This document shows positions 800 through 22,942 of a DNA stretch of 64,000 nt, piece by piece; the first letter of the stretch is position 1; each line of letters opens with the position of its first letter. The stretch is from positions 704,001-768,000 of the forward strand of contig OZ251219.1 in the NCBI GenBank assembly GCA_965240465.1. The letters are read 5' to 3'. Made by a program: the position numbers and the translations under genes. The DNA is from a bacterium. Lineage in GTDB: Bacteria; SAR324; JACQKK01. Under the pieces are notes generated by a model. It searched no databases. It was given only the letters and a program-made list of their open reading frames with translations, and had not been told where the DNA came from.

Positions 800-3700
800 A
801 TGAAAAAATTATCATTACTCTCAAGCATTTTTGTTATCACTCTGTTCTTAGCCAGCTGTGGCGGTAGTGAAGATAAGAAAGATGGCGGTAGCGAAGATAA
901 GAAAGGTGTTGTAGACCCTGTTACCGTTACTGATGCCGATGGCGATGGCATAGTCGACGATGATGACGATTGCGACAGTAGCCGCGAAGGATTCAAAAGT
1001 AATGACAACACTGACTACGATGGCGACGGCTGCGAAGATGACAGCACCGAAGACACCGATGACGACAATGATGAGGTAGACGACGGTGATGACGAGTGCC
1101 AAACAAGCATAAACTCCAACTTTGTCAGCGTTAGCACCAGCCCTGGCACTATCAACGACTACGATGGCGACGGCTGCGAAGATGACAGCACCGAAGACAC
1201 CGATGACGACAATGATAAGGTAGACGACGGTGATGACGAGTGCCAAACAAGCATAAACTCCAACTTTGTCAGCGTTAGCACCAGCCCTGGCACTATCAAC
1301 GACTACGATGGCGACGGCTGCGAAGATGACAGCACCGAAGACACCGATGACGACAATGATGAAGTAGACGACGGTGATGACGAGTGCCAAACAAGCATAA
1401 ACTCCAACTTTGTCAGCGTTAGCACCAGCCCTGGCACTATCAACGACTACGATGGCGACGGCTGCGAAGATGACAGCACCGAAGACACCGATGACGACAA
1501 TGATGAGGTAGACGACGATGATGACGAGTGCCAAATAAGCATAAACTCCAACTTTGTCAGCGTTAGCACCAGCCCTGGCACTATCAACGACTACGATGGC
1601 GACGGCTGCGAAGATGACAGCACCGAAGACACCGATGACGACAATGATGAGGTAGACGACGATGATGACAGGTGCCAAACAAGCATAAACTCCAACTTTG
1701 TCAGCGTTAGCACCAGCCCTGGCACTATCAACGACTACGATGGCGACGGCTGCGAAGATGCTGGCGAAGACAAAGATGACGACGACGACGGTCTGATAGA
1801 AATTGCCACTGCCAAGCAGCTGAACAAAATCCGCTATCGGCTGGATGGCACTCTCTACGACGAAGAAGAACTTGATGGCAGCGGTTATGAAGGTTCTAAT
1901 ACTGGCTGTCCCACCGCAGGTTGCAATGGCTATGAACTAATCAATGACATTTATTTAGCAGACCCGGTTGGTACTGCTACTGGCAACTTTGAACCCGTTG
2001 GATTCTTAAGCAGTCCTTTCACGGCTATCTTTGAAGGCAATGGCAACACCATCAGCAACCTAATTATTAGCAATGGCACTAGATACGTCGGTTTCTTTGG
2101 AATCTTGGGTGCTGATAGCGAAGTCCGAAACTTGTCCTTTGCAAAAAGTGCAACGGGTGCAGGTTCAGTTACCAGTGTCAACATTGCCTCTTCTAATACT
2201 GACTCTGGTAGAGTGGGAACCCTGGCAGGGAAGAATGAAGGAACGATATCCAATGTTTCCACTGATATCTCTGTTTCCGTTGATCTCGATACCCTCGTTA
2301 CTGGTTCCAAGCAGGTAGGTGGCTTGGTAGGTGAGAGTAATGGTATCATACAAAACAGTCGAGCCACTGGAAATGTCAGCGGCGGTAATGGTAATGACGA
2401 TGTAGGTGGCTTGGTAGGTTATGCTGCTTTTGGTGCTAGTATCCGAAACAGTTATACTACCAACTCTGTCAGCGGCAGTAGTGGTGGTGACAACGTAGGT
2501 GGCTTAGTGGGAAATGCTTCTTACGTTATTAATAACAGTTACACGATCGGTTCTGTCAACGGTGATGGTGGTGATGACAAAGTAGGTGGCTTAGTGGGAA
2601 TTGGATTGGTATCAATAACGAACAGCTACTCCATAGCCACTGTTGATGGGGGTGACGGAACCGATATTGTCGGTCGCTTAGCTACCCCTTCTTTGTCTAC
2701 TTTCAGTGTTAATAACAGCTATTATGATGGGGATAGCAACCTGACGGGAGAGACCGTCCAAACCTTTGGGATCGGCAAAACCAAAGCCCAACTAAAAGTC
2801 ATCACCCCGGATATCCCCACTACTGATAGTGCTTGCAATGCGGTTGGTGGAACTTTTTCTTCTAATATATGTGATGACGGCAATCTAGATAGCTGGAGTA
2901 CCTATGACTTTAATTTCACTGACGGCAAATACCCCAGCCTGAAGTCTTATGAGACTACCACTGATACCAGCACCAACCCCCCTACAGTCACCCAAGTTAC
3001 GGGCAGTCTACTCTGTGGGCAATTACCCGAAGCTGACTTCGTTCAGTGTGGCTCTGCCCCCCCCACGCCTCCTGTTACTTCTACCGATGCCGATACTGAT
3101 GGCATAGCCGACGACATTGATGTGGATGATGACAACAACGGTCTGATAGAACTCACCGCTACTACCCTAACCAACATCCGCTACCAACTGGACGGCACTA
3201 CCTATAAAATAAATGCCAGCGATACAGGCTCTACCATGGGTTGTTCTACTGTTGATCCCATAGGTTGCAATGGCTATGAAATAACCAATGACATTGATCT
3301 TGTTGGCAACTTTGAACCCGTTGCAGGGAATTTCACCGCTATATTTGACGGCAATAATAATACCATCAATGACCTAACCATTGACAATAGCACTCAGTAC
3401 ACTGGCTTCTTCACTACGGTGGCTTCTGCTGGTGAAGTAAGAAGTATAAACTTTGTTGGTGGCTCAATCACCAGTAGCTTTGGCAATTATGGCTATGTGG
3501 GAGTTCTGGCAGGCAAGAATGAGGGAACAGTATCCGATATTTCTGCCAATCTTTCGGTTTCTTCTGTTGGTGCGGGCCCAAATAACAATACAGGTGGCTT
3601 GATAGGCGAAAATAGTGGTATCCTGCAGGACAGCCAATCTTCTGGCAATATCAGCGGCGGTACCGGTGACAGTGATAAGGTGGGTGGCTTGGTAGGTTCC

Positions 3701-4423
3701 AATAATGGTGGCACCATCCAAAACAGCCGAGCCACTGGCAATGCCAGCGGCGGTACTGGTAACGGTGATAGTGTGGGTGGCTTGGTAGGTGCAAATAAAT
3801 CCAGTAGTAGCATTCGAAACAGTTATGCGATCGGTTCTGCCAAGGGTAATGCTGGTAATGGTGATAGTGTGGGTGGCTTGGTAGGTACCAACACTGGTGG
3901 TAGCATCCAGAACAGTTATGCGATCGGTTCTGCCAACGGTGGTGATGGTGATGACTATGTGGGTGGCTTAGTGGGACTTATTATTCAAGGAACCATCCAA
4001 AACAATTATGCCTTAGGCGATGTGGATGGGGGCAATGGAGCAACCAGTGATAGTGTGGGTCGCTTAATTGGTGGGGAGCAGCTTAGTACGATTTCAGGTA
4101 ACTATTTTGATGAGAATAGTGGATTAATTGGTAAGGAAGAAGAAACCTTTGTAGCTTCCAAAGCTCTGGGCAAAACCAGCGACCAGCTGAAAGCCATCAA
4201 CAATGTTGCCCCCACTACTGATACTACTTGCACTAGTGCTGGGGGAACTTGGGATGGCACTGCATGCACCAATGGGCATCTGGACTTTAATACCAACAAC
4301 TGGGATTTCACTGCTGACAAATACCCCAGCCTGAAGTCCTACAAAGAAGATGCTAGCGATACCCAAATCGCAGGCACTCTACTCTGTAACCAACCCACCG
4401 ACTTCGTTCAGTGTACGCCTTAG
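800..4423 (+). CDS. Large surface lipoprotein (gene B): Asp-rich thrombospondin-type-3-like Ca-binding repeats plus two GLUG-repeat domains
   Basis: MKK+hydrophobic+LASC lipobox, DxDGDGCED repeats, many xVGGLVG...NSYA motifs, 1207 aa. Confidence 0.85.
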   Translation: MKKLSLLSSIFVITLFLASCGGSEDKKDGGSEDKKGVVDPVTVTDADGDGIVDDDDDCDSSREGFKSNDNTDYDGDGCEDDSTEDTDDDNDEVDDGDDECQTSINSNFVSVSTSPGTINDYDGDGCEDDSTEDTDDDNDKVDDGDDECQTSINSNFVSVSTSPGTINDYDGDGCEDDSTEDTDDDNDEVDDGDDECQTSINSNFVSVSTSPGTINDYDGDGCEDDSTEDTDDDNDEVDDDDDECQISINSNFVSVSTSPGTINDYDGDGCEDDSTEDTDDDNDEVDDDDDRCQTSINSNFVSVSTSPGTINDYDGDGCEDAGEDKDDDDDGLIEIATAKQLNKIRYRLDGTLYDEEELDGSGYEGSNTGCPTAGCNGYELINDIYLADPVGTATGNFEPVGFLSSPFTAIFEGNGNTISNLIISNGTRYVGFFGILGADSEVRNLSFAKSATGAGSVTSVNIASSNTDSGRVGTLAGKNEGTISNVSTDISVSVDLDTLVTGSKQVGGLVGESNGIIQNSRATGNVSGGNGNDDVGGLVGYAAFGASIRNSYTTNSVSGSSGGDNVGGLVGNASYVINNSYTIGSVNGDGGDDKVGGLVGIGLVSITNSYSIATVDGGDGTDIVGRLATPSLSTFSVNNSYYDGDSNLTGETVQTFGIGKTKAQLKVITPDIPTTDSACNAVGGTFSSNICDDGNLDSWSTYDFNFTDGKYPSLKSYETTTDTSTNPPTVTQVTGSLLCGQLPEADFVQCGSAPPTPPVTSTDADTDGIADDIDVDDDNNGLIELTATTLTNIRYQLDGTTYKINASDTGSTMGCSTVDPIGCNGYEITNDIDLVGNFEPVAGNFTAIFDGNNNTINDLTIDNSTQYTGFFTTVASAGEVRSINFVGGSITSSFGNYGYVGVLAGKNEGTVSDISANLSVSSVGAGPNNNTGGLIGENSGILQDSQSSGNISGGTGDSDKVGGLVGSNNGGTIQNSRATGNASGGTGNGDSVGGLVGANKSSSSIRNSYAIGSAKGNAGNGDSVGGLVGTNTGGSIQNSYAIGSANGGDGDDYVGGLVGLIIQGTIQNNYALGDVDGGNGATSDSVGRLIGGEQLSTISGNYFDENSGLIGKEEETFVASKALGKTSDQLKAINNVAPTTDTTCTSAGGTWDGTACTNGHLDFNTNNWDFTADKYPSLKSYKEDASDTQIAGTLLCNQPTDFVQCTP
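1013..1760 (+). repeat. 144-bp (48-aa) in-frame tandem repeat, 5 full copies plus a partial
   Basis: Units begin at 1013, 1157, 1301, 1445, 1589 and 1733 and encode DYDGDGCEDDSTEDTDDDNDEVDD...SPGTIN. Confidence 0.95.
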
Positions 4424-4525
4424 GCTAGCCCTCCCCCGACTGCTTGAAAAATAGAGCAGACCATTTTTCTGGGAGTGAGTACTACTCACTCCCTTTTTCT
4501 TTTTGGGGACTGCGTTTTGCTCTCT
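4424..4525 (+). repeat. Intergenic array element copy 2
   Basis: Palindrome at 4471-4493 with the same flanks as copy 1. Confidence 0.9.
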
Positions 4526-4537
4526 TATAAAGAGATA

Positions 4538-4566
4538 TTGACACTAATTAAATTTGGTTATAGAAT
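4538..4566 (+). promoter_or_regulatory. sigma70-type promoter for array gene C
   Basis: TTGACA (4538-4543), 17 bp, TAGAAT (4561-4566). Confidence 0.7.
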
Positions 4567-4619
4567 GATCCGCATCAGCTCGTGGTAATTCTATCAACTA
4601 AATTAAGGGGGGAATACTC

Positions 4620-6428
4620 ATGAAAAAATTAACATCACTCTCAAGTATTTTAATGCTCACTCTGTTCTTAGCCAGCTGTGGCAGTAGCAAAGAGAAGAAA
4701 GATGTAGATACCGATGGCGATGGAATCAACGATTTCAAGACAGATGGCATCACCGAGAAAGACAAATGCCGAACAAGCCGAAACCCCGATTTTGTTAGCA
4801 GTCCCACCAACGACTACGATGGCGACGGTTGCGAAGACAGCACGGAAGACACCGATGACGACAATGATGGGATCAACGATGTTGATGCAAGCAACAACAC
4901 GCTAGATAAATGCCAACTAAGCGAAGACACCACCTTTAGAAGCACTGCCACCAACGACCGCGATCGCGACGGTTGCGAAGATGCTGGCGAAGACAAAGAT
5001 GACGACAATGATGGGATCAACGATGTTGATGCAGGCAACAACTTGCTAGATGAATGCCCCGAAGGCATAATTGGCATCGGAAATGACCTAGATAACGATG
5101 GCTGTAAAAACTCCAAAGACACCGATGATGACGGCGATAGAGTGCTTGACACTGTTGATGCCTGTCCCAGAGGCATAATTGGCACCAACGATCCCGATGC
5201 TGACAGCGACGGCTGTAAAGATTCAGTGGATGTTGATGATAACGGTAACGGTCTAATAGAAATTGCCACTGTTGAGGAGCTAAAGAACATCCGCTACCAA
5301 CTGGACGGCACTAGCTATAAAACAAGTAACACCGATGCAGGCTCTAATGCGGGTTGTTCTACTGCTGATCCCCTAGGTTGCAATGGCTATGAACTAATCG
5401 GGGACATTGATTTAGCAGACCTGATTAGTCCTGCTGTCAGCAACTTTGAGCCCATTGGACCATTAGGCAGTCCTTTTACGGCTATCTTTGAAGGTAATAA
5501 CTATACCATCGGCAACCTAATCATTAGCAATGACGCCAGATGCGTCGGTTTCTTTGGAGTCTTGGGTGCTGATAGCGAAGTCCGAAACTTGTCCTTTGCA
5601 AAAAGTGCAAAAAGTGCAACTGGCACAGGTTCAGTTATCAGTAGCAACGTCACCACTGGTAGTGTTAACTTTGGCAGAGTGGGAACCCTGGTAGGCGAAA
5701 ATAAAGGAACAATATCCAATGTTTCCACTGCTATCCCTGTTTCCGTTGATGTTTCCGTTACTGGTACCAAGCTGGTAGGCGGCTTGGTAGGTGAGAATAG
5801 TGCTGGTACCATACAAAACAGCCGAGCTACTGGAAATGTCACAGGCGGTAGTGGTGATGACAGAGTAGGTGGCTTGGTAGGTCAAGGTAAGGTCAAAAAC
5901 AGTTATGCTACCAACTTTGTCAACGGCGGTAGTGGTAATGACAGAGTAGGTGGCTTAGTGGGATTATCTTTTGGCATTAATAACAGTTATGCGACTGGTT
6001 CTGTCAACGGTGGTGAGGGTGATGACGAAGTAGGTGGCTTGGCGGGAGCTGGAGCAGCTATAACGAACAGCTACTCCATAGCCACTGTTGATGGGGGTGA
6101 GGGAGCCGATAAAATCAGTCACTTAGCTACCAGTATTGTGCAGGGTGCGAATACTGTTACTAGCAGCTATTATGATGATGATAATAGCAAACTGACGGGA
6201 GAAATCGTCCAAACCTTTGGGACTGGCAAAACCAGCCCCGAATTAAAAAAATTGACTGATACCAATACGAGCTGGAGTACTAACGACTGGAAATTCACTG
6301 CTGACAAATACCCCAGCCTGAAGTCCTACAAAGAAGATGCTAGCAATACCCAAATCGCAGGCACTCTACTCTGCGGGCAATTACCCGTGGCTGACTTCGT
6401 TCAGTGTCCCCCCCCCACTACGCCTTAG
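4620..6428 (+). CDS. Surface lipoprotein (gene C): Asp-rich repeats plus one GLUG-repeat domain
   Basis: LASC lipobox, DxDxDG repeats, VGGLVG motifs, shared C-terminal module. Confidence 0.85.
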   Translation: MKKLTSLSSILMLTLFLASCGSSKEKKDVDTDGDGINDFKTDGITEKDKCRTSRNPDFVSSPTNDYDGDGCEDSTEDTDDDNDGINDVDASNNTLDKCQLSEDTTFRSTATNDRDRDGCEDAGEDKDDDNDGINDVDAGNNLLDECPEGIIGIGNDLDNDGCKNSKDTDDDGDRVLDTVDACPRGIIGTNDPDADSDGCKDSVDVDDNGNGLIEIATVEELKNIRYQLDGTSYKTSNTDAGSNAGCSTADPLGCNGYELIGDIDLADLISPAVSNFEPIGPLGSPFTAIFEGNNYTIGNLIISNDARCVGFFGVLGADSEVRNLSFAKSAKSATGTGSVISSNVTTGSVNFGRVGTLVGENKGTISNVSTAIPVSVDVSVTGTKLVGGLVGENSAGTIQNSRATGNVTGGSGDDRVGGLVGQGKVKNSYATNFVNGGSGNDRVGGLVGLSFGINNSYATGSVNGGEGDDEVGGLAGAGAAITNSYSIATVDGGEGADKISHLATSIVQGANTVTSSYYDDDNSKLTGEIVQTFGTGKTSPELKKLTDTNTSWSTNDWKFTADKYPSLKSYKEDASNTQIAGTLLCGQLPVADFVQCPPPTTP

Positions 6429-6546
6429 GCTAGACCCCCCCCCCCTCCCCGACTGCTTGAAAAATAGAGCAAACCATTCTTCTGGGAGTGAGTTATACTC
6501 ACTCCCTTTCTTTTTTTGGGGACTGCATTTTGCTCTTTTAAGCACT
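6429..6546 (+). repeat. Intergenic array element copy 3
   Basis: Palindrome GGGAGTGAGT-tat-ACTCACTCCC at 6484-6506. The whole intergenic region is nearly identical to 486-799. Confidence 0.9.
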
Positions 6547-6745
6547 TGATAAACTTATCGCCAATGAAGTTCTGGCTGACTGTGTTCAGTGTGTAACCAT
6601 TAAACTTGACAGTAGCTAATTTGTGGTGCATAATAGGCGGTCTGGATTGTCTAGTGCTCTAAGGTACATCACCCTAAGGCACATCAATTTGTGGCGGTTT
6701 ATGTTAGATCATATCAGTCAAAATTAACGAATAGTAGGAAACTCA

Positions 6746-9700
6746 ATGAAAAAATTATCATTACTCTCAAGCATTTTTGTTATCACTCTGTTCTTAGCCA
6801 GCTGTGGCGGTAGTGAAGATAAGAAAGATGGCGGTAGCGAAGATAAGAAAGGTGTTGTAGACCCTGTTACCGTTACTGATGCCGATGGCGATGGCGTAGT
6901 CGACGATGATGACGATTGCGACAGTAGCCGCGAAGGATTCAAAAGTAATGACAACACTGACTACGATGGCGACGGCTGCGAAGATGACAGCACCGAAGAC
7001 ACCGATGACGACAATGATGAAGTAGACGACGGTGATGACGAGTGCCAAACAAGCATAAACTCCAACTTTGTCAGCGTTAGCACCAGCCCTGGCACTATCA
7101 ACGACTACGATGGCGACGGCTGCGAAGATGACAGCACCGAAGACACCGATGACGACAATGATGAGGTAGACGACGATGATGACGAGTGCCAAACAAGCAT
7201 AAACTCCAACTTTGTCAGCAGTGCCACCAATGACCGCGATAATGACGGTTGCGAAGATGCTGGCGAAGACAAAGATGACGACGACGACGGTCTAATAGAA
7301 CTCACCGCTACTACCCTAACCAACATCCGCTACCAACTGGACGGCACTACCTATAAAATAAATGCCAGCGATACAGGCTCTACCATGGGTTGTTCTACTG
7401 TTGATCCCATAGGTTGCAATGGCTATGAAATAACCAATGACATTGATCTTGTTGGCAACTTTGAACCCGTTGCAGGGAATTTCACCGCTATATTTGACGG
7501 CAATAATAATACCATCAATGACCTAACCATTGACAATAGCACTCAGTACACTGGCTTCTTCACTACGGTGGCTTCTGCTGGTGAAGTAAGAAGTATAAAC
7601 TTTGTTGGTGGCTCAATCACCAGTAGCTTTGGCAATTATGGCTATGTGGGAGTTCTGGCAGGCAAGAATGAGGGAACAGTATCCGATATTTCTGCCAATC
7701 TTTCGGTTTCTTCTGTTGGTGCGGGCCCAAATAACAATACAGGTGGCTTGATAGGCGAAAATAGTGGTATCCTGCAGGACAGCCAATCTTCTGGCAATAT
7801 CAGCGGCGGTACCGGTGACAGTGATAATGTGGGTGGCTTGGTAGGTTCCAATAATGGTGGCACCATCCAAAACAGCCGAGCCACTGGCAATGCCAGCGGC
7901 GGTACTGGTAACGGTGATAGTGTGGGTGGCTTGGTAGGTGCAAATAAATCCAGTAGTAGCATTCGAAACAGTTATGCGATCGGTTCTGCCAAGGGTAATG
8001 CTGGTAATGGTGATAGTGTGGGTGGCTTGGTAGGTACCAACACTGGTGGTAGCATCCAGAACAGTTATGCGATCGGTTCTGCCAACGGTGGTGATGGTGA
8101 TGACTATGTGGGTGGCTTAGTGGGACTTATTATTCAAGGAACCATCCTGAACAGTTATGCCTTAGGCGATGTGGATGGGGGCAATGGAGCAACCAGTGAT
8201 AGTGTGGGTCGCTTAATTGGTGGGGAGCAGCTTAGTACGATTTCAGGTAACTATTTTGATGAGAATAGTGGATTAATTGGTAAGGAAGAAAAAACCTTTG
8301 TAGCTTCCAAAGCTCTGGGCAAAACCAGCGACCAGCTGAAAGCCATCAACAATGTTGCCCCCACTACTGATACTACTTGCACTAGTGCTGGGGGAACTTG
8401 GGATGGCACTGCATGCACCGATGGGCATCTGAACCTTAGTACCAACAACTGGGATTTCACTGCTGACAAATACCCCAGCCTGAAATCCTACAAGGTGAAT
8501 GCCAGCGATGTCCAAGTTGAGGGTGTTTTACTCTGTAACCAATCCACCGACTTCGTTCAATGTCCTATGCCTGAGGCCGATGCCGATGGCGATGGCGTAA
8601 CCGACGACATTGACGTGGATGATGACAACGACGGTCTAATAGAACTCACCACTACTACCCTAACCAACATCCGCTACCAACTGGACGGCACTACCTATAA
8701 AATAAATGCCAGCGATACAGGCTCTACCATGGGTTGTTCTACTGTTGATCCCATAGGTTGCAATGGCTATGAAATAACCAATGACATTGATCTTGTTGGC
8801 AACTTTGAACCCGTTGCAGGGGATTTCACCGCTATATTTGACGGCAATAATAATACCATCACTAACCTAACCATTAGCAATAGCTCCTCGCCCACGGGCT
8901 TTTTTGCGGTTCTGGGTACTAATAGCACAGTCAAAAACTTATCCTTTACCAGTGGTTCAATTGCTGGCAGCGGTGGTGATGACTACGTGGGTGTCCTGGC
9001 AGGCACTAATGATGGAACAATATTCAATGTTTCCGCTGATATCTCGGTTTCTGCTGGCGATGGTAGCGACACAGTGGGCGGCTTGGTAGGTAAGAATAGT
9101 AGTATTGGCACCATCGTAAACAGCTCTGCCACTGGCACTGCTGATGGCGATGCTGGTCATGATCGGATAGGTGGCTTGGTAGGGGTTAATGAAGGAACAA
9201 TCCAAAATAGCTCTGCCACTGGCACTGCTAATGGCGGTGGCGATAGTGATTATGGGATAGGTAGCTTGGTAGGGAATAATGAGGGAACAATCCAAAATAG
9301 CTATGCCACTGGCACTGCTAATGGCGGTGATGGTGCTGATGGTGGAATAGGTGGCTTGGTAGGGGATAATAGTAGTACTGGCACCATCAGAAATAGCTAT
9401 GCCACCGGCATTGCTAATGGCAATGATAGTGATGATGCTGGGACAGGTGGCTTGGTAGGGGTTAATGAAGGAACAATCCAAAATAGCTATGCCACTGGCA
9501 ATGCTAATGGCGGTGCGGGTACTGACTATGTAGGCGGTTTGGTAGGGGGGAATGTTAGTAATGGCACCATCAGAAATAGCTATTCCTTAGGTGCTGTTGA
9601 TGGGGGGGGGAATGCTAGTTCCGGTGGTGTTGGTAGATTGGTTGGCTATAAAGATATAGGAGTAATTATTACCGGCAACTATTATAATGATACTAGTAGC

Positions 9701-9964
9701 GTATCTAATGGAGCCGAACTAACCCTTGGTAACACCGAGGCCAAAGGCAAAACCCTTGCTCAACTAAAAGACTTGGATGCCGATGATACCGAAACTGACT
9801 TTGGTGCGAGCAATCGCTGGAATGAATTCAACTGGAATTTCACTGACACCAAATACCCCAGCCTGAAGTCCTACAAGGTGGATGCCAACGATGCCCAAAT
9901 CGCAGGCGATCTACTCTGTGGGCAATTACCCGTAGCTGACTTCGTTCAGTGTACCAGTCCCTAG
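6746..9964 (+). CDS. Surface lipoprotein (gene B'), mosaic paralog of gene B with two GLUG domains
   Basis: N-terminus almost identical to gene B. Segment 7289-8483 nearly identical to 3140-4334. Confidence 0.85.
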   Translation: MKKLSLLSSIFVITLFLASCGGSEDKKDGGSEDKKGVVDPVTVTDADGDGVVDDDDDCDSSREGFKSNDNTDYDGDGCEDDSTEDTDDDNDEVDDGDDECQTSINSNFVSVSTSPGTINDYDGDGCEDDSTEDTDDDNDEVDDDDDECQTSINSNFVSSATNDRDNDGCEDAGEDKDDDDDGLIELTATTLTNIRYQLDGTTYKINASDTGSTMGCSTVDPIGCNGYEITNDIDLVGNFEPVAGNFTAIFDGNNNTINDLTIDNSTQYTGFFTTVASAGEVRSINFVGGSITSSFGNYGYVGVLAGKNEGTVSDISANLSVSSVGAGPNNNTGGLIGENSGILQDSQSSGNISGGTGDSDNVGGLVGSNNGGTIQNSRATGNASGGTGNGDSVGGLVGANKSSSSIRNSYAIGSAKGNAGNGDSVGGLVGTNTGGSIQNSYAIGSANGGDGDDYVGGLVGLIIQGTILNSYALGDVDGGNGATSDSVGRLIGGEQLSTISGNYFDENSGLIGKEEKTFVASKALGKTSDQLKAINNVAPTTDTTCTSAGGTWDGTACTDGHLNLSTNNWDFTADKYPSLKSYKVNASDVQVEGVLLCNQSTDFVQCPMPEADADGDGVTDDIDVDDDNDGLIELTTTTLTNIRYQLDGTTYKINASDTGSTMGCSTVDPIGCNGYEITNDIDLVGNFEPVAGDFTAIFDGNNNTITNLTISNSSSPTGFFAVLGTNSTVKNLSFTSGSIAGSGGDDYVGVLAGTNDGTIFNVSADISVSAGDGSDTVGGLVGKNSSIGTIVNSSATGTADGDAGHDRIGGLVGVNEGTIQNSSATGTANGGGDSDYGIGSLVGNNEGTIQNSYATGTANGGDGADGGIGGLVGDNSSTGTIRNSYATGIANGNDSDDAGTGGLVGVNEGTIQNSYATGNANGGAGTDYVGGLVGGNVSNGTIRNSYSLGAVDGGGNASSGGVGRLVGYKDIGVIITGNYYNDTSSVSNGAELTLGNTEAKGKTLAQLKDLDADDTETDFGASNRWNEFNWNFTDTKYPSLKSYKVDANDAQIAGDLLCGQLPVADFVQCTSP

Positions 9965-10008
9965 GCTAGACCCCCCCCCCTCAATCCCCCAGACTGCCTT
10001 ATAGGAAC

Positions 10009-10037
10009 TTGACAACGCCCCCTCTGCCTGCCATGAT
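10009..10037 (+). promoter_or_regulatory. Possible sigma70 promoter for array gene D
   Basis: TTGACA (10009-10014), 17 bp, CATGAT (10032-10037). Confidence 0.5.
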
Positions 10038-10104
10038 AAAAACTGACGATTTCTCAAAGCTGGGGAATGCCCTAGCCTTTTACACCAATATCGGAGGATT
10101 TCTG

Positions 10105-11931
10105 ATGAAAAAATTATCACTACTATCAGCCAGTTGTATTCTGGCTTTATTTTTAGCTAGCTGCGGGGGGGGTAGTAGCGGTGGTGGTGGTGGTGGTGGA
10201 TCTGTTGCCGACGCCGACGGCGACGGTCTAATAGAAATTGCCACTGCTGAGGAACTGAACAACATTCGCCATAATTTGGCAGGCACTAGTTATAATGATG
10301 GCACGAATGCTCCATCTAGTACGGGCTGTCCTAGATCTGGTTGTAATGGCTACGAACTAGCTGACGACATTGATCTTTCCTCCATTACCAACTTTGTTCC
10401 CATTGGACAATTAGGCAGTCCTTTCACGGCTATCTTTGAAGGTAATGATTACACCATCAGTAACCTAAACATTGCCACCGACAATACCACCTACTACACG
10501 GGATTCTTTGCGATCTCTAGAGGCAAAGTGCAAAACTTGTCCTTTGCAACAGGTTCAGTTGCCAGTAGCAATAATGGTGGTAGTAGGAGTAATCTCAACT
10601 GTGTAGGGGTTCTGGCAGGCAGAAATAATGGAATAATATCGGGTGTTTCTTCGGGGCCATCGGTTTCTGCTGGCACAGGTGACTATGACTGTGTAGGTGG
10701 CTTGGTAGGTAGCAATAATGGCACTATTCAAAATAGCTCTGTCACTAGCTCTGTCACTAGCTCTGTCACTGGCTCTGCTGATGGCGGTGGTGGTAACTAT
10801 GACTATGTGGGTGGCTTGGTAGGTTATAATGGAGGTAGCATCCAAAATAGCCGTGCCACTGCCACTGCCAATGGCGGTGGTGGTAACTATGACAATGTGG
10901 GTGGCTTGGTAGGTTATAATGGAGGTAGCATTGGTAATAGCTCTGCCACTGGCTCTGCTGATGGCGATGATGGTGACACTGACTCTGTGGGTGGCTTGGT
11001 AGGTTATAATACTGGCACCATCCGAGATAGTCATGCCACTGGCTCTGCTGATGGCGATGATGGTGAATATGACTCTGTGGGTGGCTTGGTGGGTAGTAAC
11101 TACGGCACCATCGGTAATAGCTCTGCCACTGGCATTGCCAGTGGCGGTGCTGGTAATGACAATGTGGGTGGCTTGGTAGGTGGTAATACTAGCACGATCC
11201 AGAACAGCTATGCCACTGGCATTGCCAGTGGCGGTGCTGGTAATGACTTTGTGGGTGGCTTGGTGGGTTATGATTTTAATGGCACCATCGGTAATAGTTA
11301 TGCCACTGGCAATGCCAATAGCGATGCTGGTAATGACTATGTGGGTGGCTTGGTGGGTTATGATTTTAATGGCACCATCGGTAATAGCTATGCCACTGGC
11401 AAAGCCAATGGCGGTGATGGTGATGACGCTGTGGGTGGCTTAGTGGGGAGTATTAATAATGATGAAAATGCTTTAACCATCGGTAATAGTTATGCCTTAG
11501 GCAATGTGGTTGGGGGCGAGGGAACCGATGAAGTGGGTCGCTTGATTGGAAAAAAAGGGACTGGGACTGGGACAATTACAATTACCAGCAACTATTATGA
11601 TAGTGATAGTGTCTTAGATGGCGAAAATCCCCTATCCCTTCCAGATACCGAAGCTCTGGGCAAAACCAGCGACCAGCTGAAAGCCAACAACAATGTTGCC
11701 CCCGATAGTGGTACTGCTTGCACTAGTGCTGGGGGAACTTGGGATAGCGGTGCATGCACCGATGGGCATCTGAACCTTAGTGCCAACAACTGGGATTTCA
11801 CTGACGGCAAATACCCCAGCTTAAAGTCCTACAAGGTGGATGCCAACGATACCCAAATCGCAGGCGATCTACTCTGTGGGCAATTACCCGTGGCTGACTT
11901 CGTTCAGTGTCCCCCCCCCACTACGCCTTAG
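10105..11931 (+). CDS. Surface lipoprotein (gene D) with an extended GLUG-repeat domain
   Basis: Start moved to ATG 10105 (GGAGG at 10093-10097, MKKLSLLS...LASC like its paralogs). About ten VGGLVG repeats and the shared C-terminal module. Confidence 0.85.
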   Translation: MKKLSLLSASCILALFLASCGGGSSGGGGGGGSVADADGDGLIEIATAEELNNIRHNLAGTSYNDGTNAPSSTGCPRSGCNGYELADDIDLSSITNFVPIGQLGSPFTAIFEGNDYTISNLNIATDNTTYYTGFFAISRGKVQNLSFATGSVASSNNGGSRSNLNCVGVLAGRNNGIISGVSSGPSVSAGTGDYDCVGGLVGSNNGTIQNSSVTSSVTSSVTGSADGGGGNYDYVGGLVGYNGGSIQNSRATATANGGGGNYDNVGGLVGYNGGSIGNSSATGSADGDDGDTDSVGGLVGYNTGTIRDSHATGSADGDDGEYDSVGGLVGSNYGTIGNSSATGIASGGAGNDNVGGLVGGNTSTIQNSYATGIASGGAGNDFVGGLVGYDFNGTIGNSYATGNANSDAGNDYVGGLVGYDFNGTIGNSYATGKANGGDGDDAVGGLVGSINNDENALTIGNSYALGNVVGGEGTDEVGRLIGKKGTGTGTITITSNYYDSDSVLDGENPLSLPDTEALGKTSDQLKANNNVAPDSGTACTSAGGTWDSGACTDGHLNLSANNWDFTDGKYPSLKSYKVDANDTQIAGDLLCGQLPVADFVQCPPPTTP

Positions 11932-12075
11932 GCTAGCCCCCCCCCCCCGACTGCACCCTAGGCTACACCCTCGGCAAACTGCTTGAAAAAAGCAACCGAG
12001 CATTTTTCTGGGAGTGAGTAGTACTCACTCCCTTTTTCTTTTTGGTAGGGGGGACAACCAATCTCTTTTAAGCAC
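11932..12075 (+). repeat. Intergenic array element copy 4
   Basis: Palindrome GGGAGTGAGT-agt-ACTCACTCCC at 12010-12032, ending in ctcttttaagcacttga as in copies 1 and 3. Confidence 0.9.
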
Positions 12076-12104
12076 TTGACAAACTGATCGCGATACCCTA
12101 CACT
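12076..12104 (+). promoter_or_regulatory. Near-consensus sigma70 promoter upstream of the large ncRNA
   Basis: TTGACA (12076-12081), 17 bp, TACACT (12099-12104). Predicted transcription start near 12111. Confidence 0.75.
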
Positions 12105-12193
12105 CACATTATCAAAACATTTTTAGTGATCCAAACTGCAGTTATGCCAAACCTAGGCTGGTAAGGATAGGTTCGCTAAGGGTTTTAGATAAC

Positions 12194-12783
12194 GAATGAA
12201 AGGGGATTGGTGGGTAGTGACCGCCTGAGGTTCCGTCATACCGAAGGGTGGATCATGTGTGTCCTTTGTGCCTTTTGGCATATGTTTTGGCACACGCAAA
12301 TGACGAGGAAGATGAGGAGGTAGATTGCACCGAAATCTCTTCTCCCCTCCGCAAATGAGTAGAACTTAGGCAAGTCCTAGATTCCTGCCATTAAGGGATT
12401 AAAACGCGGATTAAGCAATCGCAGAAACACTGGCGGGAGTTTAATAGCTCCGAAGGTCGTGAAACGCCGTTTCTGTTTTGGTAAGTACTTTTAGTACTTT
12501 TTCCAAGGTATAATTTCACGCCTAGTACCGAGCTGGGACTGAGCAATTTTAATTAATTGCCAGTTTGCATTGCTAGTTTGCATTGCTAGTTTGCATTGCC
12601 AGAGCGAAAGCGAACGCAAGTCTCGGTTCACTTAGTGGCATCCTTTCGGTAGCCACTAGCGAAGCTGAGGTCGTCATTGCAAACCGTAAGACTTCGCGGG
12701 AGGACCGTGCCATCATCTCAGGGTGAGGATTTTTGAGAATAATGGAGCAAGCGATGACATTCCTCACCAAGCCTCTTTCATTC
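12194..12783 (+). ncRNA. Large ornate structured RNA, ROOL-like (~590 nt)
   Basis: No credible ORF. Closing helix 12194-12205/12772-12783. Internal helices 12224-30/12716-22, 12422-28/12469-75, 12530-40/12619-29, 12633-39/12652-58, 12659-64/12692-97, 12722-29/12761-68. Pseudoknot-type pairings 12458-64/12514-20 and 12673-80/12751-58. Motifs GUAGAUUGCACCGA, UAAGCAAUCGCAGAAAC, GUUUCUG and GUAAG occur in the order I recall for ROOL RNAs. Confidence 0.8.
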
Positions 12784-12860
12784 TACCCCCCCAAAAAAAC
12801 CCACCCACCCCCAAAAAAACCCCTACCCCCCTCACCTTGATTTCTCCATCACCCTGCATC

Positions 12861-12981
12861 CCCCTCCCCCCCGACTGCTTGAAGAAGGCAGCCCTAGCAT
12901 TTGGGAGTGAGTCTCACTCCCTTTCTTTTTGGTGGGGGGACAACACCAATCTCTTTTAAGCACTTGATAAATTGATCGCGA
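12861..12981 (+). repeat. Intergenic array element copy 5 (after the ncRNA, abutting the uvrB stop)
   Basis: GGGAGTGAG-t-CTCACTCCC at 12903-12921. Tail ggggggacaac..caatctcttttaagcacttga.aaa.tgatcgcgat shared with copy 4. Confidence 0.9.
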
Positions 12982-12986
12982 TGTTT

Positions 12987-14978
12987 TTAGTAGATTCCCA
13001 GATTTTCCTTTTTAATACGAGTGATTTCATCACGGATATCGGCAGCTTGTTCAAATTTCAGGTTTTTGGCGGCTAGTTTCATGGATTTTTCCAGTTGTTT
13101 GACTTCTTTGAGCCAGTTTAGGTTAGATTGATGGTTTTTGGAGATAAGGGTATCAGGGGGAGATTTTTTTGATTTGGCAGGGGTTTTTTCAGCCGAGCTC
13201 AGTTGAGTTTCCAGTATTCTTTGGACGGCTCGGGGAGTGATGTGATGTTTTTTGTTGTAGTTTTGCTGGATGTTTCGGCGGCGATTAGTTTCATTGATAA
13301 CAGATTGCATGGAGGGGGTGATTTTTTCGGCATAGAAGATGATGCGTCCTTTTTCGTGTCTGGCGGCTCGTCCGCAGGTTTGCATAAGGGAGCGTTCAGA
13401 GCGTAGGAAGCCTTCCTTATCGGCATCAAGGATGGCGACTAGGGAGACTTCAGGGAGGTCTAGTCCTTCTCTTAGGAGATTGATGCCTACGAGTACATCA
13501 AAGGCTCCGCTACGGAGGTTGCGTATTATTTCGGCTCTTTCCAGGGCGTTGACTTCTGAGTGCATCCAGCATATTTTGATTCCGAGTTTTTCATAATAGG
13601 TTGCGATGTCTTCAGCCATTCTTTTGGTGAGGGTGATGATGAGTACTCGTTCATTTTTTTGGGAGCATAGTCGTAGTTCGTGTAGGAGGTGGTCTATTTG
13701 TTGGTTAGCTGGTAGCACTTTGATGGGGGGATCGAGCAATCCAGTGGGTCGGATGAGCAGTTCTAGGGGTTTGCTTATTTTGCGTTCATAGGGTCCAGGG
13801 GTAGCAGAGAGGTAGATGGCTTGGACGATTCTTTGTTGATATTCTTCAAAGGTTAGGGGTCGGTTATCCAGGGCACTGGGTAGTCGGAAGCCGTGTGCGA
13901 CGAGGGTTTTTTTTCTAGCTTGGTCGCCTTTGGACATTCCAGCTAGTTGTGGGAAGCTGACGTGGCTTTCATCAACGAATAGCAGGGAGCGAGTGGGAAA
14001 GTAGTCTATCAATGTTTCTGGGGGGCTACCGGGTTTTCTATTATGTAGCCAGCGGCTGTAGTTTTCTATTCCCTTGCAAAAGCCGGTTTCTTCCATCATT
14101 TCTAGATCAAAGTTGGTGCGTTGTTCCAGTCTTTGTGCTTCTAGCAGTTTGTTTTCTTTATGGAGATTGATTAATTGTTCAGCGAGTTCTTCCCTGATAG
14201 AGTTCAAGGCATGCTTCATTTCACTGGGAGGCGATACATAATGAGAAGCAGGGTAGATAGCAATCTTGCTAAGTAGTTCTACCTTATTGCCTCTTACGGT
14301 ATCTATACGGCTGATGGCTTCTATTTCGTCGCCAAAGAACTCTATCCTTATTGCGTGTTCGCTTTCGGCAGGGAACACTTCTACCACATCTCCCCGTACC
14401 CGAAATACTCCCCGATGAAAATCGTAATCATTACGTGTGTATTGAACATCCACCAGCCGTAGTAGCAAGGTATCTCGGGAGAGTTTCTCGCCTACTTGTA
14501 CGTACACCAGCATTTTCCGATAAATCTCGGGCGAACCCAATCCATAAATGCATGACACACTAGCTACGATTACCACATCTTCTCGCTCCAACAGGGATTT
14601 GGTAGCCGAAAGACGCATGCGATCAAGTTCATCATTGATGGAAGCATCTTTTTCAATGTATAAGTCTTGGGCGGGGAGATAGGCTTCGGGTTGGTAGTAG
14701 TCGTAATAGCTGACGAAGTACTCCACTGCATTATCGGGGAAGAATCTCTTAAACTCTTGGTAGAGTTGGGCTGCTAGGATTTTGTTAGGAGCGATTACTA
14801 ATCCTGGACGCTGGAGATTTGCTATGACATTAGCCATAAGAAAGGTTTTACCAGAGCCAGTAACTCCAGCTAGGGTTTGATGCTGAACTCCAGAGGAGAA
14901 TCCAGTACATAGTTTATCAACCACCTCAGCTTGGGGCGGAGTAAGAGAGAACTGCGATTGCAGACGGAATTTATTCAT
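12987..14978 (-). CDS. uvrB: Excinuclease ABC subunit B
   Basis: GVTGSGKT, FVSYYDYYQPEAY, GINLLREGLDLPEVSLVAILDADKEGFLRS, C-terminal UVR domain. Confidence 0.98.
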   Translation of the reverse strand: MNKFRLQSQFSLTPPQAEVVDKLCTGFSSGVQHQTLAGVTGSGKTFLMANVIANLQRPGLVIAPNKILAAQLYQEFKRFFPDNAVEYFVSYYDYYQPEAYLPAQDLYIEKDASINDELDRMRLSATKSLLEREDVVIVASVSCIYGLGSPEIYRKMLVYVQVGEKLSRDTLLLRLVDVQYTRNDYDFHRGVFRVRGDVVEVFPAESEHAIRIEFFGDEIEAISRIDTVRGNKVELLSKIAIYPASHYVSPPSEMKHALNSIREELAEQLINLHKENKLLEAQRLEQRTNFDLEMMEETGFCKGIENYSRWLHNRKPGSPPETLIDYFPTRSLLFVDESHVSFPQLAGMSKGDQARKKTLVAHGFRLPSALDNRPLTFEEYQQRIVQAIYLSATPGPYERKISKPLELLIRPTGLLDPPIKVLPANQQIDHLLHELRLCSQKNERVLIITLTKRMAEDIATYYEKLGIKICWMHSEVNALERAEIIRNLRSGAFDVLVGINLLREGLDLPEVSLVAILDADKEGFLRSERSLMQTCGRAARHEKGRIIFYAEKITPSMQSVINETNRRRNIQQNYNKKHHITPRAVQRILETQLSSAEKTPAKSKKSPPDTLISKNHQSNLNWLKEVKQLEKSMKLAAKNLKFEQAADIRDEITRIKKENLGIY

Positions 14979-15183
14979 AGCTGAGCTTGTTCAATTAGCC
15001 TTGTTTAGTGAGTCTTATTTAGTGAGTCTTATTTAGTGAGTTTGGGGTGTATTTGACATAATATGGAGTAGCAGTGCATGCTGTGAACGGATGGGGGGAG
15101 GTTTGGGAGAGGTAGAGGGGTTGTCCTTATGATTGGGATATTCTAGTAGTAGGATAGTGTATTTACGAGGGAGGATAGAAGTT

Positions 15184-15567
15184 ATGAGTAAGAAGTTGTT
15201 TATTGCCCATGCTCAGAGTTTGGAAGAAGATTACCTAGGATTAAAGAGGTTGCTATCCCGCTATTACAGCATAGATGATTTTGCGGTTTGGGATAATAAA
15301 CGCCTGCCTCGATCTCGCTGGGATGACGTACAATCGCGCATCAAGGAGTGTGGAGTTTTTGTGTTGGTGGCGGGAGCGTATGGGGTGAATTCGGGTGTGA
15401 TCAAGGATGAAATTAAGATAGCCAAGGAGGCGGGGTTACCAGTGTTAGTGGTGGAGCGTCATAGCAAGGATCGCTCTGTTACCTTGCATTACATGGCCGA
15501 TGAAGTGGTGGCATGGAATACCAACGAGATCAGTAATGCGGTGCGTAGGTTGTCTCAGAAGCAGTAG
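15184..15567 (+). CDS. Stand-alone TIR-like domain protein (MTH538/DUF1863, Thoeris ThsB-like)
   Basis: LFIAHA start, 'SGVIKDEIKIAKEAGLPVLVV' with conserved Glu, 'ADEVVAWN' end. Start placed at ATG 15184 after a GGAGG RBS. Confidence 0.7.
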   Translation: MSKKLFIAHAQSLEEDYLGLKRLLSRYYSIDDFAVWDNKRLPRSRWDDVQSRIKECGVFVLVAGAYGVNSGVIKDEIKIAKEAGLPVLVVERHSKDRSVTLHYMADEVVAWNTNEISNAVRRLSQKQ

Positions 15568-21772: not shown

Positions 21773-22942
21773 TTAGAGGTTTTGCAGTTCTTCAGCGATT
21801 AGTTCAGCAGCTCGTTGATAGGCACTGGGTTTGCCGAATTTGGAGGTAATGATTTTCAGTTGTTTTTGCATGAGTTTTCTTTGTGGTAGGGGGTGAAGTT
21901 TTTTCAATTGCTGATAGATATTTTCTGCGGTGCATTGTTTTTGTATCAGTTCGGGGATGACCATGCGTCCTGCGGTGATGTTGACGAGTGCGGCATAGGG
22001 GATTAAGAGGAGTTTTTTAAGTATCCAGAAAGTTATGGGGTTGAGGCGGTAGAAGAGTACCATAGGGACATTTGCTAAGGCGGTTTGGAAAGCAGCGGTT
22101 CCAGAGCAGACAGCTGCCAGTTGTGCCCGATGAATGACTGCGAGGAAGCATTTTTCAACTACCAGCAGGTGTTTAGCGATTCCTCTTTTGGCGATGGCTG
22201 CGTGGATGAGTTTTTTGATTTTGGGTTGGTTGAGATTATCTGACAAAGGAATGACGAAGCGAGCCTTAATGCCATTTTTAATGAGTAGCTGGGTGGCATC
22301 CAACAGGGGATGTAGGTGTCGGAGTAGTTCTTCAGCTCGGCTTCCGGGGATGATGGCGATGATTTCTCCTTGCCAGCCCGATAGTCGTTGTTGGAGGAGT
22401 TTTTTTTCTTGGCTACTGGGAACTTGCCCTACCAAAGGATGCCCAAAGAAATAGGCTCTCACCCCTGCTTTTAGATATATGTCCTTCTCAAATGGAAGTA
22501 TTAAAATGATCAGCCGAACTGATTTTTGTACCTGCCGTAGACGTCCAGCTCGGGTTGCCCAAAGCTGCGGCCCAACATAGTAAAAAACTGGAATTCCTAG
22601 CCGCTTAGCTCGCTTAGCCAATCGCAGATTAAAGCCAGAATAATCTATCAGCAACAAGGCATCAGGCTGACGCTCTTTGAGAACCATCCTCAGCCGTCTC
22701 ATGATTAACATCAGACGCGGTAAATGCCTCACCAGCTCCATTAGTCCATACGCCCTCATCGATTCAAGATCCCGCCAGAGGACCATCCCCTGTGCCTGCA
22801 TTTTCTCTCCCCCTATCCCCTCCATCTGCAAATTCGGAAGTCTGGAACGTAAACCACGCAATAACTCGCCCCCATGATTATCGCCAGAGGTTTCCCCAGC
22901 CACAACCCATAATTTCAATGGACGGGAGGAACTCTTTCTCAT
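21773..22942 (-). CDS. lpxB: Lipid-A-disaccharide synthase
   Basis: VAGETSGD, IDYSGFNLRLA, PQLWA, ILPFE, GHPL, PGSR, SGTA, PELIQ. Confidence 0.95.
   Translation of the reverse strand: MRKSSSRPLKLWVVAGETSGDNHGGELLRGLRSRLPNLQMEGIGGEKMQAQGMVLWRDLESMRAYGLMELVRHLPRLMLIMRRLRMVLKERQPDALLLIDYSGFNLRLAKRAKRLGIPVFYYVGPQLWATRAGRLRQVQKSVRLIILILPFEKDIYLKAGVRAYFFGHPLVGQVPSSQEKKLLQQRLSGWQGEIIAIIPGSRAEELLRHLHPLLDATQLLIKNGIKARFVIPLSDNLNQPKIKKLIHAAIAKRGIAKHLLVVEKCFLAVIHRAQLAAVCSGTAAFQTALANVPMVLFYRLNPITFWILKKLLLIPYAALVNITAGRMVIPELIQKQCTAENIYQQLKKLHPLPQRKLMQKQLKIITSKFGKPSAYQRAAELIAEELQNL

Follow-up and report, generated by a model that had tools for sequence, protein, structure and literature searches.

A seven-copy family of probable structured non-coding RNAs, distinct from ROOL, in a small bacterial genome

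Results

The locus and its promoter

Within the window, i.e. the whole stretch of 64,000 nucleotides analysed here from a closed genome of 1,599,138 bp (completeness estimate 83.6%), a gap of 1055 nt (11932-12986) separates a gene for a 640-residue GLUG-motif protein (10009-11931, plus strand), the last gene of a co-directional array, from uvrB (12987-14978, assigned via Pfam), which is convergent to the RNA gene described here. The longest open reading frame (ORF) in the gap encodes 78 aa, in agreement with the initial annotation of this DNA, which had described an ORF-less gap of about 1 kb. Several of its remarks on the surroundings were likewise confirmed: LpxB is encoded at 21773-22942, no tRNA genes were found in the 64-kb window and no phage genes adjoin the locus.

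A sigma-70-type promoter is located at 12076-12104 on the plus strand, consisting of TTGACA (12076-12081), a 17-nt spacer and TACACT (12099-12104) and matching the consensus at 10 of 12 positions. A single promoter-like site of this kind is at the level of shuffled sequence (mean of 1.1 in shuffles), and the near-consensus promoter proposed earlier is credible because it is conserved in all seven paralogues of the RNA found in this genome, each of which carries ACTTGACAAAC followed by a 17-nt spacer and TAnnnT. In copies c4 to c7, conservation sets in exactly at the promoter. The transcription start is predicted to lie near 12111. As the upstream gene ends in its own terminator hairpin (12010-12032) and uvrB is convergent, the RNA gene would form a separate transcription unit. 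On the 3' side, the last base of the RNA body is followed by a C-rich, G-poor tract (12784-12872, plus strand), a putative Rho-utilisation region, and the genome encodes Rho. An intrinsic-terminator-like hairpin with a T run follows at 12903-12921 (plus strand) within the second copy of a GLUG intergenic module (see below). Both the 5' and the 3' end of the RNA are predictions derived from these signals.

Two further observations were made around the locus. Homopolymeric C runs (C7-C12) occur at 11912-11920, 11937-11948, 12787-12793 and 12861-12872, i.e. at GLUG gene 3' ends and in intergenic DNA, and are candidates for slipped-strand phase variation. Beyond uvrB, a ThsB-like TIR-domain protein of 144 aa is encoded at 15133-15567 (plus strand) next to a Fur-family gene (Pfam 2e-4, PADLOC ThsB 2e-6).

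A family of long and mini copies

The genome contains seven paralogues of the RNA, five long copies (c1 to c5, with c1 being the copy in the window) and two mini copies (c6 and c7). BLAST recovered five full copies at 100, 96, 91, 73 and 68% identity together with one fragment, and covariance models (R1 and R2) of the conserved 5' core (12215-12349) recovered all seven copies with scores of 79-164 bits. Bodies are about 550-590 nt long in the long copies (551-589 nt), 220 nt in c6 and 250 nt in c7. Identity among the long copies ranges from 68 to 97%, with c1 to c3 being 91-97% alike, and the minis are far more diverged. In the alignment of the copies, the conserved part runs from ACTTGACAAAC to the final base of the closing helix.

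The minis are without the middle domain of about 330 nt. They retain the closing helix P1, hairpin P2 with a CUGAGGUUC(C)GUCA loop, P3, a long-range helix, the P4 loop GAGGAGGU..UGCACCGNAAUCUCUU and the 3' AGCA(A/U)GC segment. Both P1 and the long-range helix are maintained in the minis by different sequences: the strands of the long-range helix are GCAAAUGACGA/UCGUCAUUGC in the long copies, GCAAGUGA/UCACUUUGC in c6 and GCAAGU/AUUUGC in c7. Invariant unpaired segments include GGAGGU, UGCACCG, GAAGGUCGUG, AAACGCGGAU, AGCAAGC and the palindromic CUGCAG of the leader.

Some copies contain or adjoin tandem repeats. A 13-nt unit, located in the middle domain (12556-12602 in c1), is present in three copies in c1, in two in c2 and in none or one in c3. 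The leader of c6 carries about 10 copies of a 16-nt unit (about 1300-1458 of locus L098), and c7 is followed by a repeat of about 24 nt (about 1160-1290 of locus L099, minus strand).

Architecture of the RNA

All features of the c1 RNA lie on the plus strand. It starts with a structured leader (12111-12193) containing helices 1 to 4, in which four pairs are changed on both sides among the copies. About 85-90 nt long here, the leader measures 84-95 nt in six copies, while expansion of a tandem repeat brings that of c6 to 253 nt. Within the leader, AAACUGCAG (12133-12141) shows no variation among the five long copies and is left unpaired in each of them; it contains the palindromic CUGCAG, which is a candidate dimerisation or processing site.

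The leader is followed by a body of 590 nt (12194-12783) closed by helix P1, which is found in all seven copies and whose distal pairs covary. A long-range helix between 12194-12205 and 12772-12783 had already been noted; it extends to 20 pairs (12194-12214/12763-12783), is 99% paired across five copies and has three pairs changed on both sides. Seen as DNA, the body is enclosed by inverted arms of 26 nt (12194-12219/12758-12783).

Inside P1, the conserved 5' core (12215-12349) comprises the hairpins P2 (loop CUGAGGUUCCGUCAUACC), P3 and P4 (12307-12343; loop GAGGAGGU..UGCACCG), and the long-range helix has its 5' strand (GCAAAUGACGA, 12296-12306) directly before P4. The middle domain (12350-12670), present in the long forms and absent from the two minis, contains the invariant segments AAACGCGGAU and GAAGGUCGUG, a helix formed by GCAGAAAC and GUUUCUGU (12421-12428/12469-12476), a candidate pseudoknot (12458-64/12514-20) and the variable 13-nt tandem repeat. 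The 3' domain (12671-12762) contains two hairpins and the invariant segments UGCCAUCAUCU and GAGAAUAAUGGAGCAAGC; its first nucleotides (UCGUCAUUGC, 12671-12680) supply the 3' side of the long-range helix, and it includes an alternative pairing (12673-80/12751-58).

Overall, the RNAalifold model shows several multistem junctions and two candidate pseudoknots. The two pseudoknot-type pairings at 12458-64/12514-20 and 12673-80/12751-58 had been pointed out in the initial annotation. Both can form in 5/5 long copies, with wobble-compatible changes only; the data agree with these pairings but do not prove them. The second of them excludes the long-range helix 12296-12306/12671-12680, and an alternative conformation of the RNA is therefore possible.

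Covariation and absence of coding capacity

The structure of the long copies was derived using RNAalifold on a MAFFT alignment of the five long copies. This resulted in 193 pairs, 21 of which show compensatory double changes, compared with 3-7 when pairing partners were slid. In shuffles, the number of such pairs was 6.5 +/- 2.1, and none of 500 was as high as observed. Across the five long copies, 95.1% of the paired cells can pair, compared with 39-46% for slid partners. G-U is common at about 29 of the 193 pairs (hand count from the pair table), so that the many internal helices with G-U pairs described at the outset hold up, as does the fold when examined by the covariation analysis that had been suggested, which was carried out here on the paralogues. 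In the 5' core, compared among all seven copies, double-sided changes affect 16 of 40 pairs, and pairing is possible in 96.3% of cells compared with 38-57% for slid partners; these values lean towards the model since the alignment was fitted to it. The G-U pairs, together with the promoter, assign the RNA to the plus strand.

Folding energies gave z-scores of -4.0 (plus strand) and -4.6 (minus strand) for c1, based on 20 shuffles each, and of -5.7 and -6.9 for the minis. While the z-score of c1 is not decisive alone, covariation is decisive for structure beyond chance. All copies come from one genome, and covariation therefore rests on about five independent lineages (c1-c3, c4, c5, c6 and c7). 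No ORF of at least 30 aa occupies matching alignment columns throughout the five long copies. The comparison of paralogues shows that selection has kept structure and not coding capacity.

Comparison with ROOL and other known RNA families

The initial annotation had assigned the RNA to the ROOL family. This assignment did not stand up to the cmscan search that had been proposed alongside it. Using Rfam 15, no match at the gathering cut-off was obtained in the whole window. At E<=10 with permissive filters, the region 11900-13000 yielded only five chance matches to snoRNA, miRNA and sRNA models (16-21 bits), none of them ROOL, and the mini-copy loci gave nothing relevant and no ROOL match at E<=5. 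The best score of the ROOL model anywhere in the genome was 11.7 bits at an unrelated site, compared with a gathering cut-off of 99.1. As a positive control, the ROOL RNA of L. salivarius pMP118 (NC_007930) scored 130.4 bits (E 2e-28) over the full model with the same settings and DNA length. This published locus (PMC5643018, PMC5737381) was chosen because the control genomes contain no ROOL: the model matched in 0 of 14 control genomes and in 0 of 5 randomly picked Bacillota genomes.

Three sequence motifs had been quoted in favour of ROOL. All three are present in the sequence; the motifs taken as characteristic of ROOL have, at best, 5 and 7 mismatches in true ROOL, which equals the shuffled expectation, and blastn of the RNA against true ROOL gave nothing better than E 1.9, with pMP118 serving as the one ROOL representative in both comparisons. 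Without the assignment, the earlier claim that ROOL occurs here in an unusual host falls away as well.

Every other Rfam 15 family, including GOLLD, OLE, HEARO, raiA, group I and II introns, RNase P, tmRNA and 6S, was likewise without a match for both long and mini copies. The genome has its canonical RNase P RNA at another place (C1:225900-226344, 256.8 bits) and the search for reverse transcriptases gave no matches in the genome, which argues against readings of the RNA as a divergent RNase P, a retron, a DGR or a group II intron.

Genomic context and the GLUG-motif genes

GLUG-motif paralogues make up a large part of this genome: 57 ORFs of at least 150 aa, with a total of 144.5 kb or 9% of the 1.6-Mb genome, are arranged in six co-directional arrays and as single genes. 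The arrays are located at 310-351, 691-716, 794-812, 871-910, 1342-1357 and 1565-1570 kb of the chromosome (G000:C1), with 800-11931 being the part in the window. This investment suggests a variable, possibly surface-exposed protein repertoire.

Four of the seven RNA copies immediately follow a GLUG gene of the same orientation: c1 at the end of an array, c2 and c3 inside arrays and c4 after a single GLUG gene. A fifth copy, c7, is located 2.3 kb upstream of two GLUG genes, and the remaining two are not beside GLUG genes, with c6 located between hypothetical genes and followed by an unrelated proline-rich ORF. The genes next to c1, c4, c5 and c7 are convergent to the RNA and encode UvrB, Smr, an OLD-like ATPase and an aromatic amino acid lyase, respectively. 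In case of c5, the RNA lies between a UvrD-like helicase gene (5197-7596 of locus L107, plus strand; weak GajB-type matches) and the convergent OLD-like ATPase gene (8372-10261, minus strand; AAA_15 and Toprim; AriA, Old and GajA-type matches). This pair resembles a defence system with an RNA gene in between.

An intergenic module characteristic of the GLUG genes precedes the RNA at 11975-12094 (plus strand) and consists of the terminator hairpin at 12010-12032 followed by AAGCACTTGACAAAC. It is present as a direct repeat at 12874-12982 and at 18 further sites in the genome. A 25-nt segment of the module, CTTGAYAAACTKATCGCCA, is homologous to the -35 box and spacer of the RNA promoter, with the -10 box missing. 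At GLUG genes, the module continues into a TTGACA-17-TGcATAAT promoter, a long conserved leader and the next GLUG gene, and further modules in the window are located at about 465-615, about 4418-4506 and about 6408-6561. A separate count puts the module at 19 occurrences. A skip joint (11954->12896) in sample X1/X2 was considered as a deletion form of the locus and is read instead as another copy of the GLUG module.

Rough arithmetic over independent lineages, taking 57 GLUG genes among 1212 ORFs of at least 150 aa, gives p of about 0.02 for the link between RNA and GLUG genes. Only two of five independent lineages are directly behind a GLUG gene, because c1 to c3 have probably spread together with their flanks. 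The neighbourhoods are suggestive of an association between the RNA and the GLUG genes, but not strong evidence for it. A congener (G001), whose UvrB is 76% identical, lacks both the RNA and, with the query used, GLUG paralogues. To named genomes of many phyla, the identity of UvrB is 60% at most. G065, a genome of the same class and another family (1.6 Mb, one contig), gave 19 GLUG-paralogue matches and no RNA match. Its GLUG matches lie inside giant ORFs of 2400-4500 aa, e.g. at C1:13-51 kb and 1582-1599 kb.

Distribution beyond this genome

Searches of related genomes recovered the RNA in the source genome and found it in none of 40 relatives by blastn (1 of 41 genomes positive), none of 60 relatives by covariance model R1 (1 of 61) and none of 87 other genomes of the phylum by covariance model R2 (1 of 88). 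Full scoring of R2 in five small genomes of the class gave noise only (11 bits). Further, no match was obtained by blastn against 50,697 phage records or against a plasmid collection. Viral and metagenome contigs were scanned using an exact motif from the conserved P4 loop. The two viral and three metagenome loci recovered are considered chance matches, with only the motif aligning and the P2 loop missing, and one motif-scan match (L100/L101/L102) lies inside an ORF of 269 aa. As an exact-motif scan is insensitive, its outcome does not establish absence from metagenomes. Among the contigs of four sequencing runs, sample X1/X2 carries all paralogues, and study X3/X4 contains short, low-depth pieces of the RNA, with no differences in one and one difference and one gap in the other. 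Being nearly identical to the RNA, these pieces represent the same or a very near strain and not a new homologue. The runs carrying the sequence come from these two studies, and no RNA run is among them. In the literature, where the sequence itself is not searchable, no described RNA of this kind was found.

Discussion

The comparison of the copies demonstrates that the promoter is conserved, that the leader is structured, that the RNA has a closed multi-domain fold in which a modular core is joined by an optional domain, and that purifying selection acts on pairing. From these features, it is highly probable that the seven loci constitute a genuine gene family of structured non-coding RNAs. 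Our preferred reading goes further and holds that 12076-12783 is a gene of an undescribed, lineage-restricted family of structured non-coding RNAs which is not ROOL, and which is transcribed, processed and active in trans as outlined below. Taken as a whole, we consider this reading somewhat probable.

The RNA would be transcribed independently from about 12111, with its 3' end generated by Rho in the C-rich tract at 12784-12872 or at the hairpin at 12903-12921, and the transcript may then be trimmed back to the nuclease-resistant helix P1. The RNA would accumulate as a stable structural RNA acting in trans and might, much like OLE, ROOL or raiA-class RNAs, serve as a scaffold or as part of an RNP. 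Its invariant unpaired segments could represent contact sites for proteins, another RNA or the RNA itself, and the presence of multiple copies would provide both dosage and variants. For a trans-acting structural or RNP role, we see about even chances. The role may additionally be tied to the GLUG-motif arrays beside most copies, as weakly indicated by the 25 nt which the promoter shares with the GLUG module; such a functional link is conceivable but rather doubtful. A bolder version would be a new class of ornate RNA with long and mini isoforms built on one core, which has co-evolved with the GLUG family and serves it as an RNP scaffold or as a regulator of expression, export or variation, or which forms an RNA-only assembly independent of ROOL and GOLLD. 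We offer this as speculation and regard it as improbable in this full form.

The alternative that survives best, and which we nevertheless regard as unlikely, is that of a selfish or non-autonomous repeat, MITE-like or spread by recombination, whose inverted ends and folding serve its own spread. Such an element would be multi-copy and enclosed by inverted arms like the 26-nt arms found here, a direct repeat of about 115 nt flanks c1, c1 to c3 lie at homologous junctions with the GLUG module, c5 sits within a defence-like gene pair and the RNA is present in one genome only among the relatives searched. However, the conserved unit spans from the promoter, about 118 nt outside the 5' arm, to the 3' arm and is therefore not bounded by the inverted repeat. 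Further, internal hairpins of the mini copies pair with wholly different sequences, which would be unneeded for a DNA transposase site, and compensatory pairs persist at 68% identity. No accompanying transposase was found, nor a reverse transcriptase in the genome, and the repeat flanking c1 is the ordinary GLUG module, which occurs at 18 further sites without the RNA. A MITE in the strict sense is TIR-bounded, has a target-site duplication and occurs in near-identical copies; here, the promoter lies outside the arms and the long copies are 68-97% identical. ERIC, Correia and BOX elements likewise recur between genes, have inverted ends and fold once they are transcribed. The present element resembles them as a repeated intergenic unit with inverted ends but differs in having its own promoter outside the arms and in the compensatory evolution of its many internal helices, with the structure being kept at <=68% identity.

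It is quite unlikely that the RNA is a large ribozyme which processes itself or acts on a different substrate. The size of the RNA and its many invariant unpaired nucleotides, e.g. in GAAGGUCGUG, AAACGCGGAU and AGCAAGC, would fit a ribozyme, as would the compact conserved core with optional peripheral domains known from RNase P and group I introns. On the other hand, no ribozyme or intron match was obtained in Rfam, and the loci have no intron-like context in the form of flanking exons, a homing endonuclease or a reverse transcriptase.

Very unlikely, in our judgement, is a cis-acting part of the GLUG arrays, i.e. a long leader or riboregulator for the downstream GLUG gene or an insulator or terminator at array ends. 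A co-directional GLUG gene does follow c2 and c3 (about 100 nt downstream in case of c3), and the promoter segment is common to the GLUG module. Yet the next gene is convergent in c1, c4, c5 and c7, the ORF after c6 is unrelated, and the upstream gene already has its own terminator.

That an unusual host here carries ROOL, or a distant relative of ROOL, is hardly tenable given the search results above, in which a genuine ROOL was readily recovered under identical settings. There is a general likeness to ROOL (RF03087) in the 590-nt body, close to the ROOL average of 581 nt (PMC5737381), and in the probably independent transcription, the predicted multi-junction architecture with candidate pseudoknots, a hypervariable internal stretch and a function that is not known (PMC5737381, PMC12286853). 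In contrast to this likeness, the present RNA shows no match to ROOL in sequence or structure and has seven paralogues in its genome including mini forms. ROOL is typically found near tRNA genes and in prophages or phages, whereas the RNA described here has GLUG genes and uvrB as neighbours, no tRNA genes in the window and no match in phage records. For ROOL, an RNA-only homo-octameric cage has been reported (PMC12286853). Finally, that the locus encodes one or more small proteins can be dismissed as extremely unlikely: ORFs of 30-88 aa exist on both strands and GGAGGU is invariant in all seven copies, but none of the ORFs stays in place and in frame across the five long copies, those of at least 30 aa number just three in c5, indels are not in threes, and GGAGGU is followed after 3 nt by UUG in c1 to c3 and by no start codon at the usual spacing in the other copies.

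As a general kind, the RNA resembles the ornate large bacterial non-coding RNAs GOLLD and OLE, which have been described as forming RNA-only cages and a membrane RNP, respectively. It differs from both in having no Rfam match and in its host, which is an LpxB-encoding bacterium from a small phylum and not a member of the Bacillota, and no OLE-associated genes were seen beside the copies. Multi-copy sRNA families such as Qrr and the CsrB/CsrC-type decoys also comprise several paralogous genes per genome with similar promoters of their own. The present family shares this arrangement and conserves purine-rich, GGA-containing loops; its members are three to ten times the size of these sRNAs, fold into a closed structure of several domains and show neither a repeated array of protein-binding motifs nor target complementarity. 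A search for antisense targets gave only matches of 13-15 nt at chance level, none of them in GLUG leaders.

In conclusion, large and intricately folded bacterial RNAs of unknown function are rare, with OLE, GOLLD, ROOL and raiA as the main examples, and each of these has led to unexpected biology, e.g. membrane RNPs and RNA-only cages. The family characterized here is known from the DNA of a single lineage. Its seven diverged paralogues in one small genome provide internal covariation evidence for which no other species is needed, and the natural minimal versions define the core and are suited to structural work. In this organism, whose genome is much smaller than those of its family relatives, the RNA family is physically interleaved with massively amplified GLUG genes.
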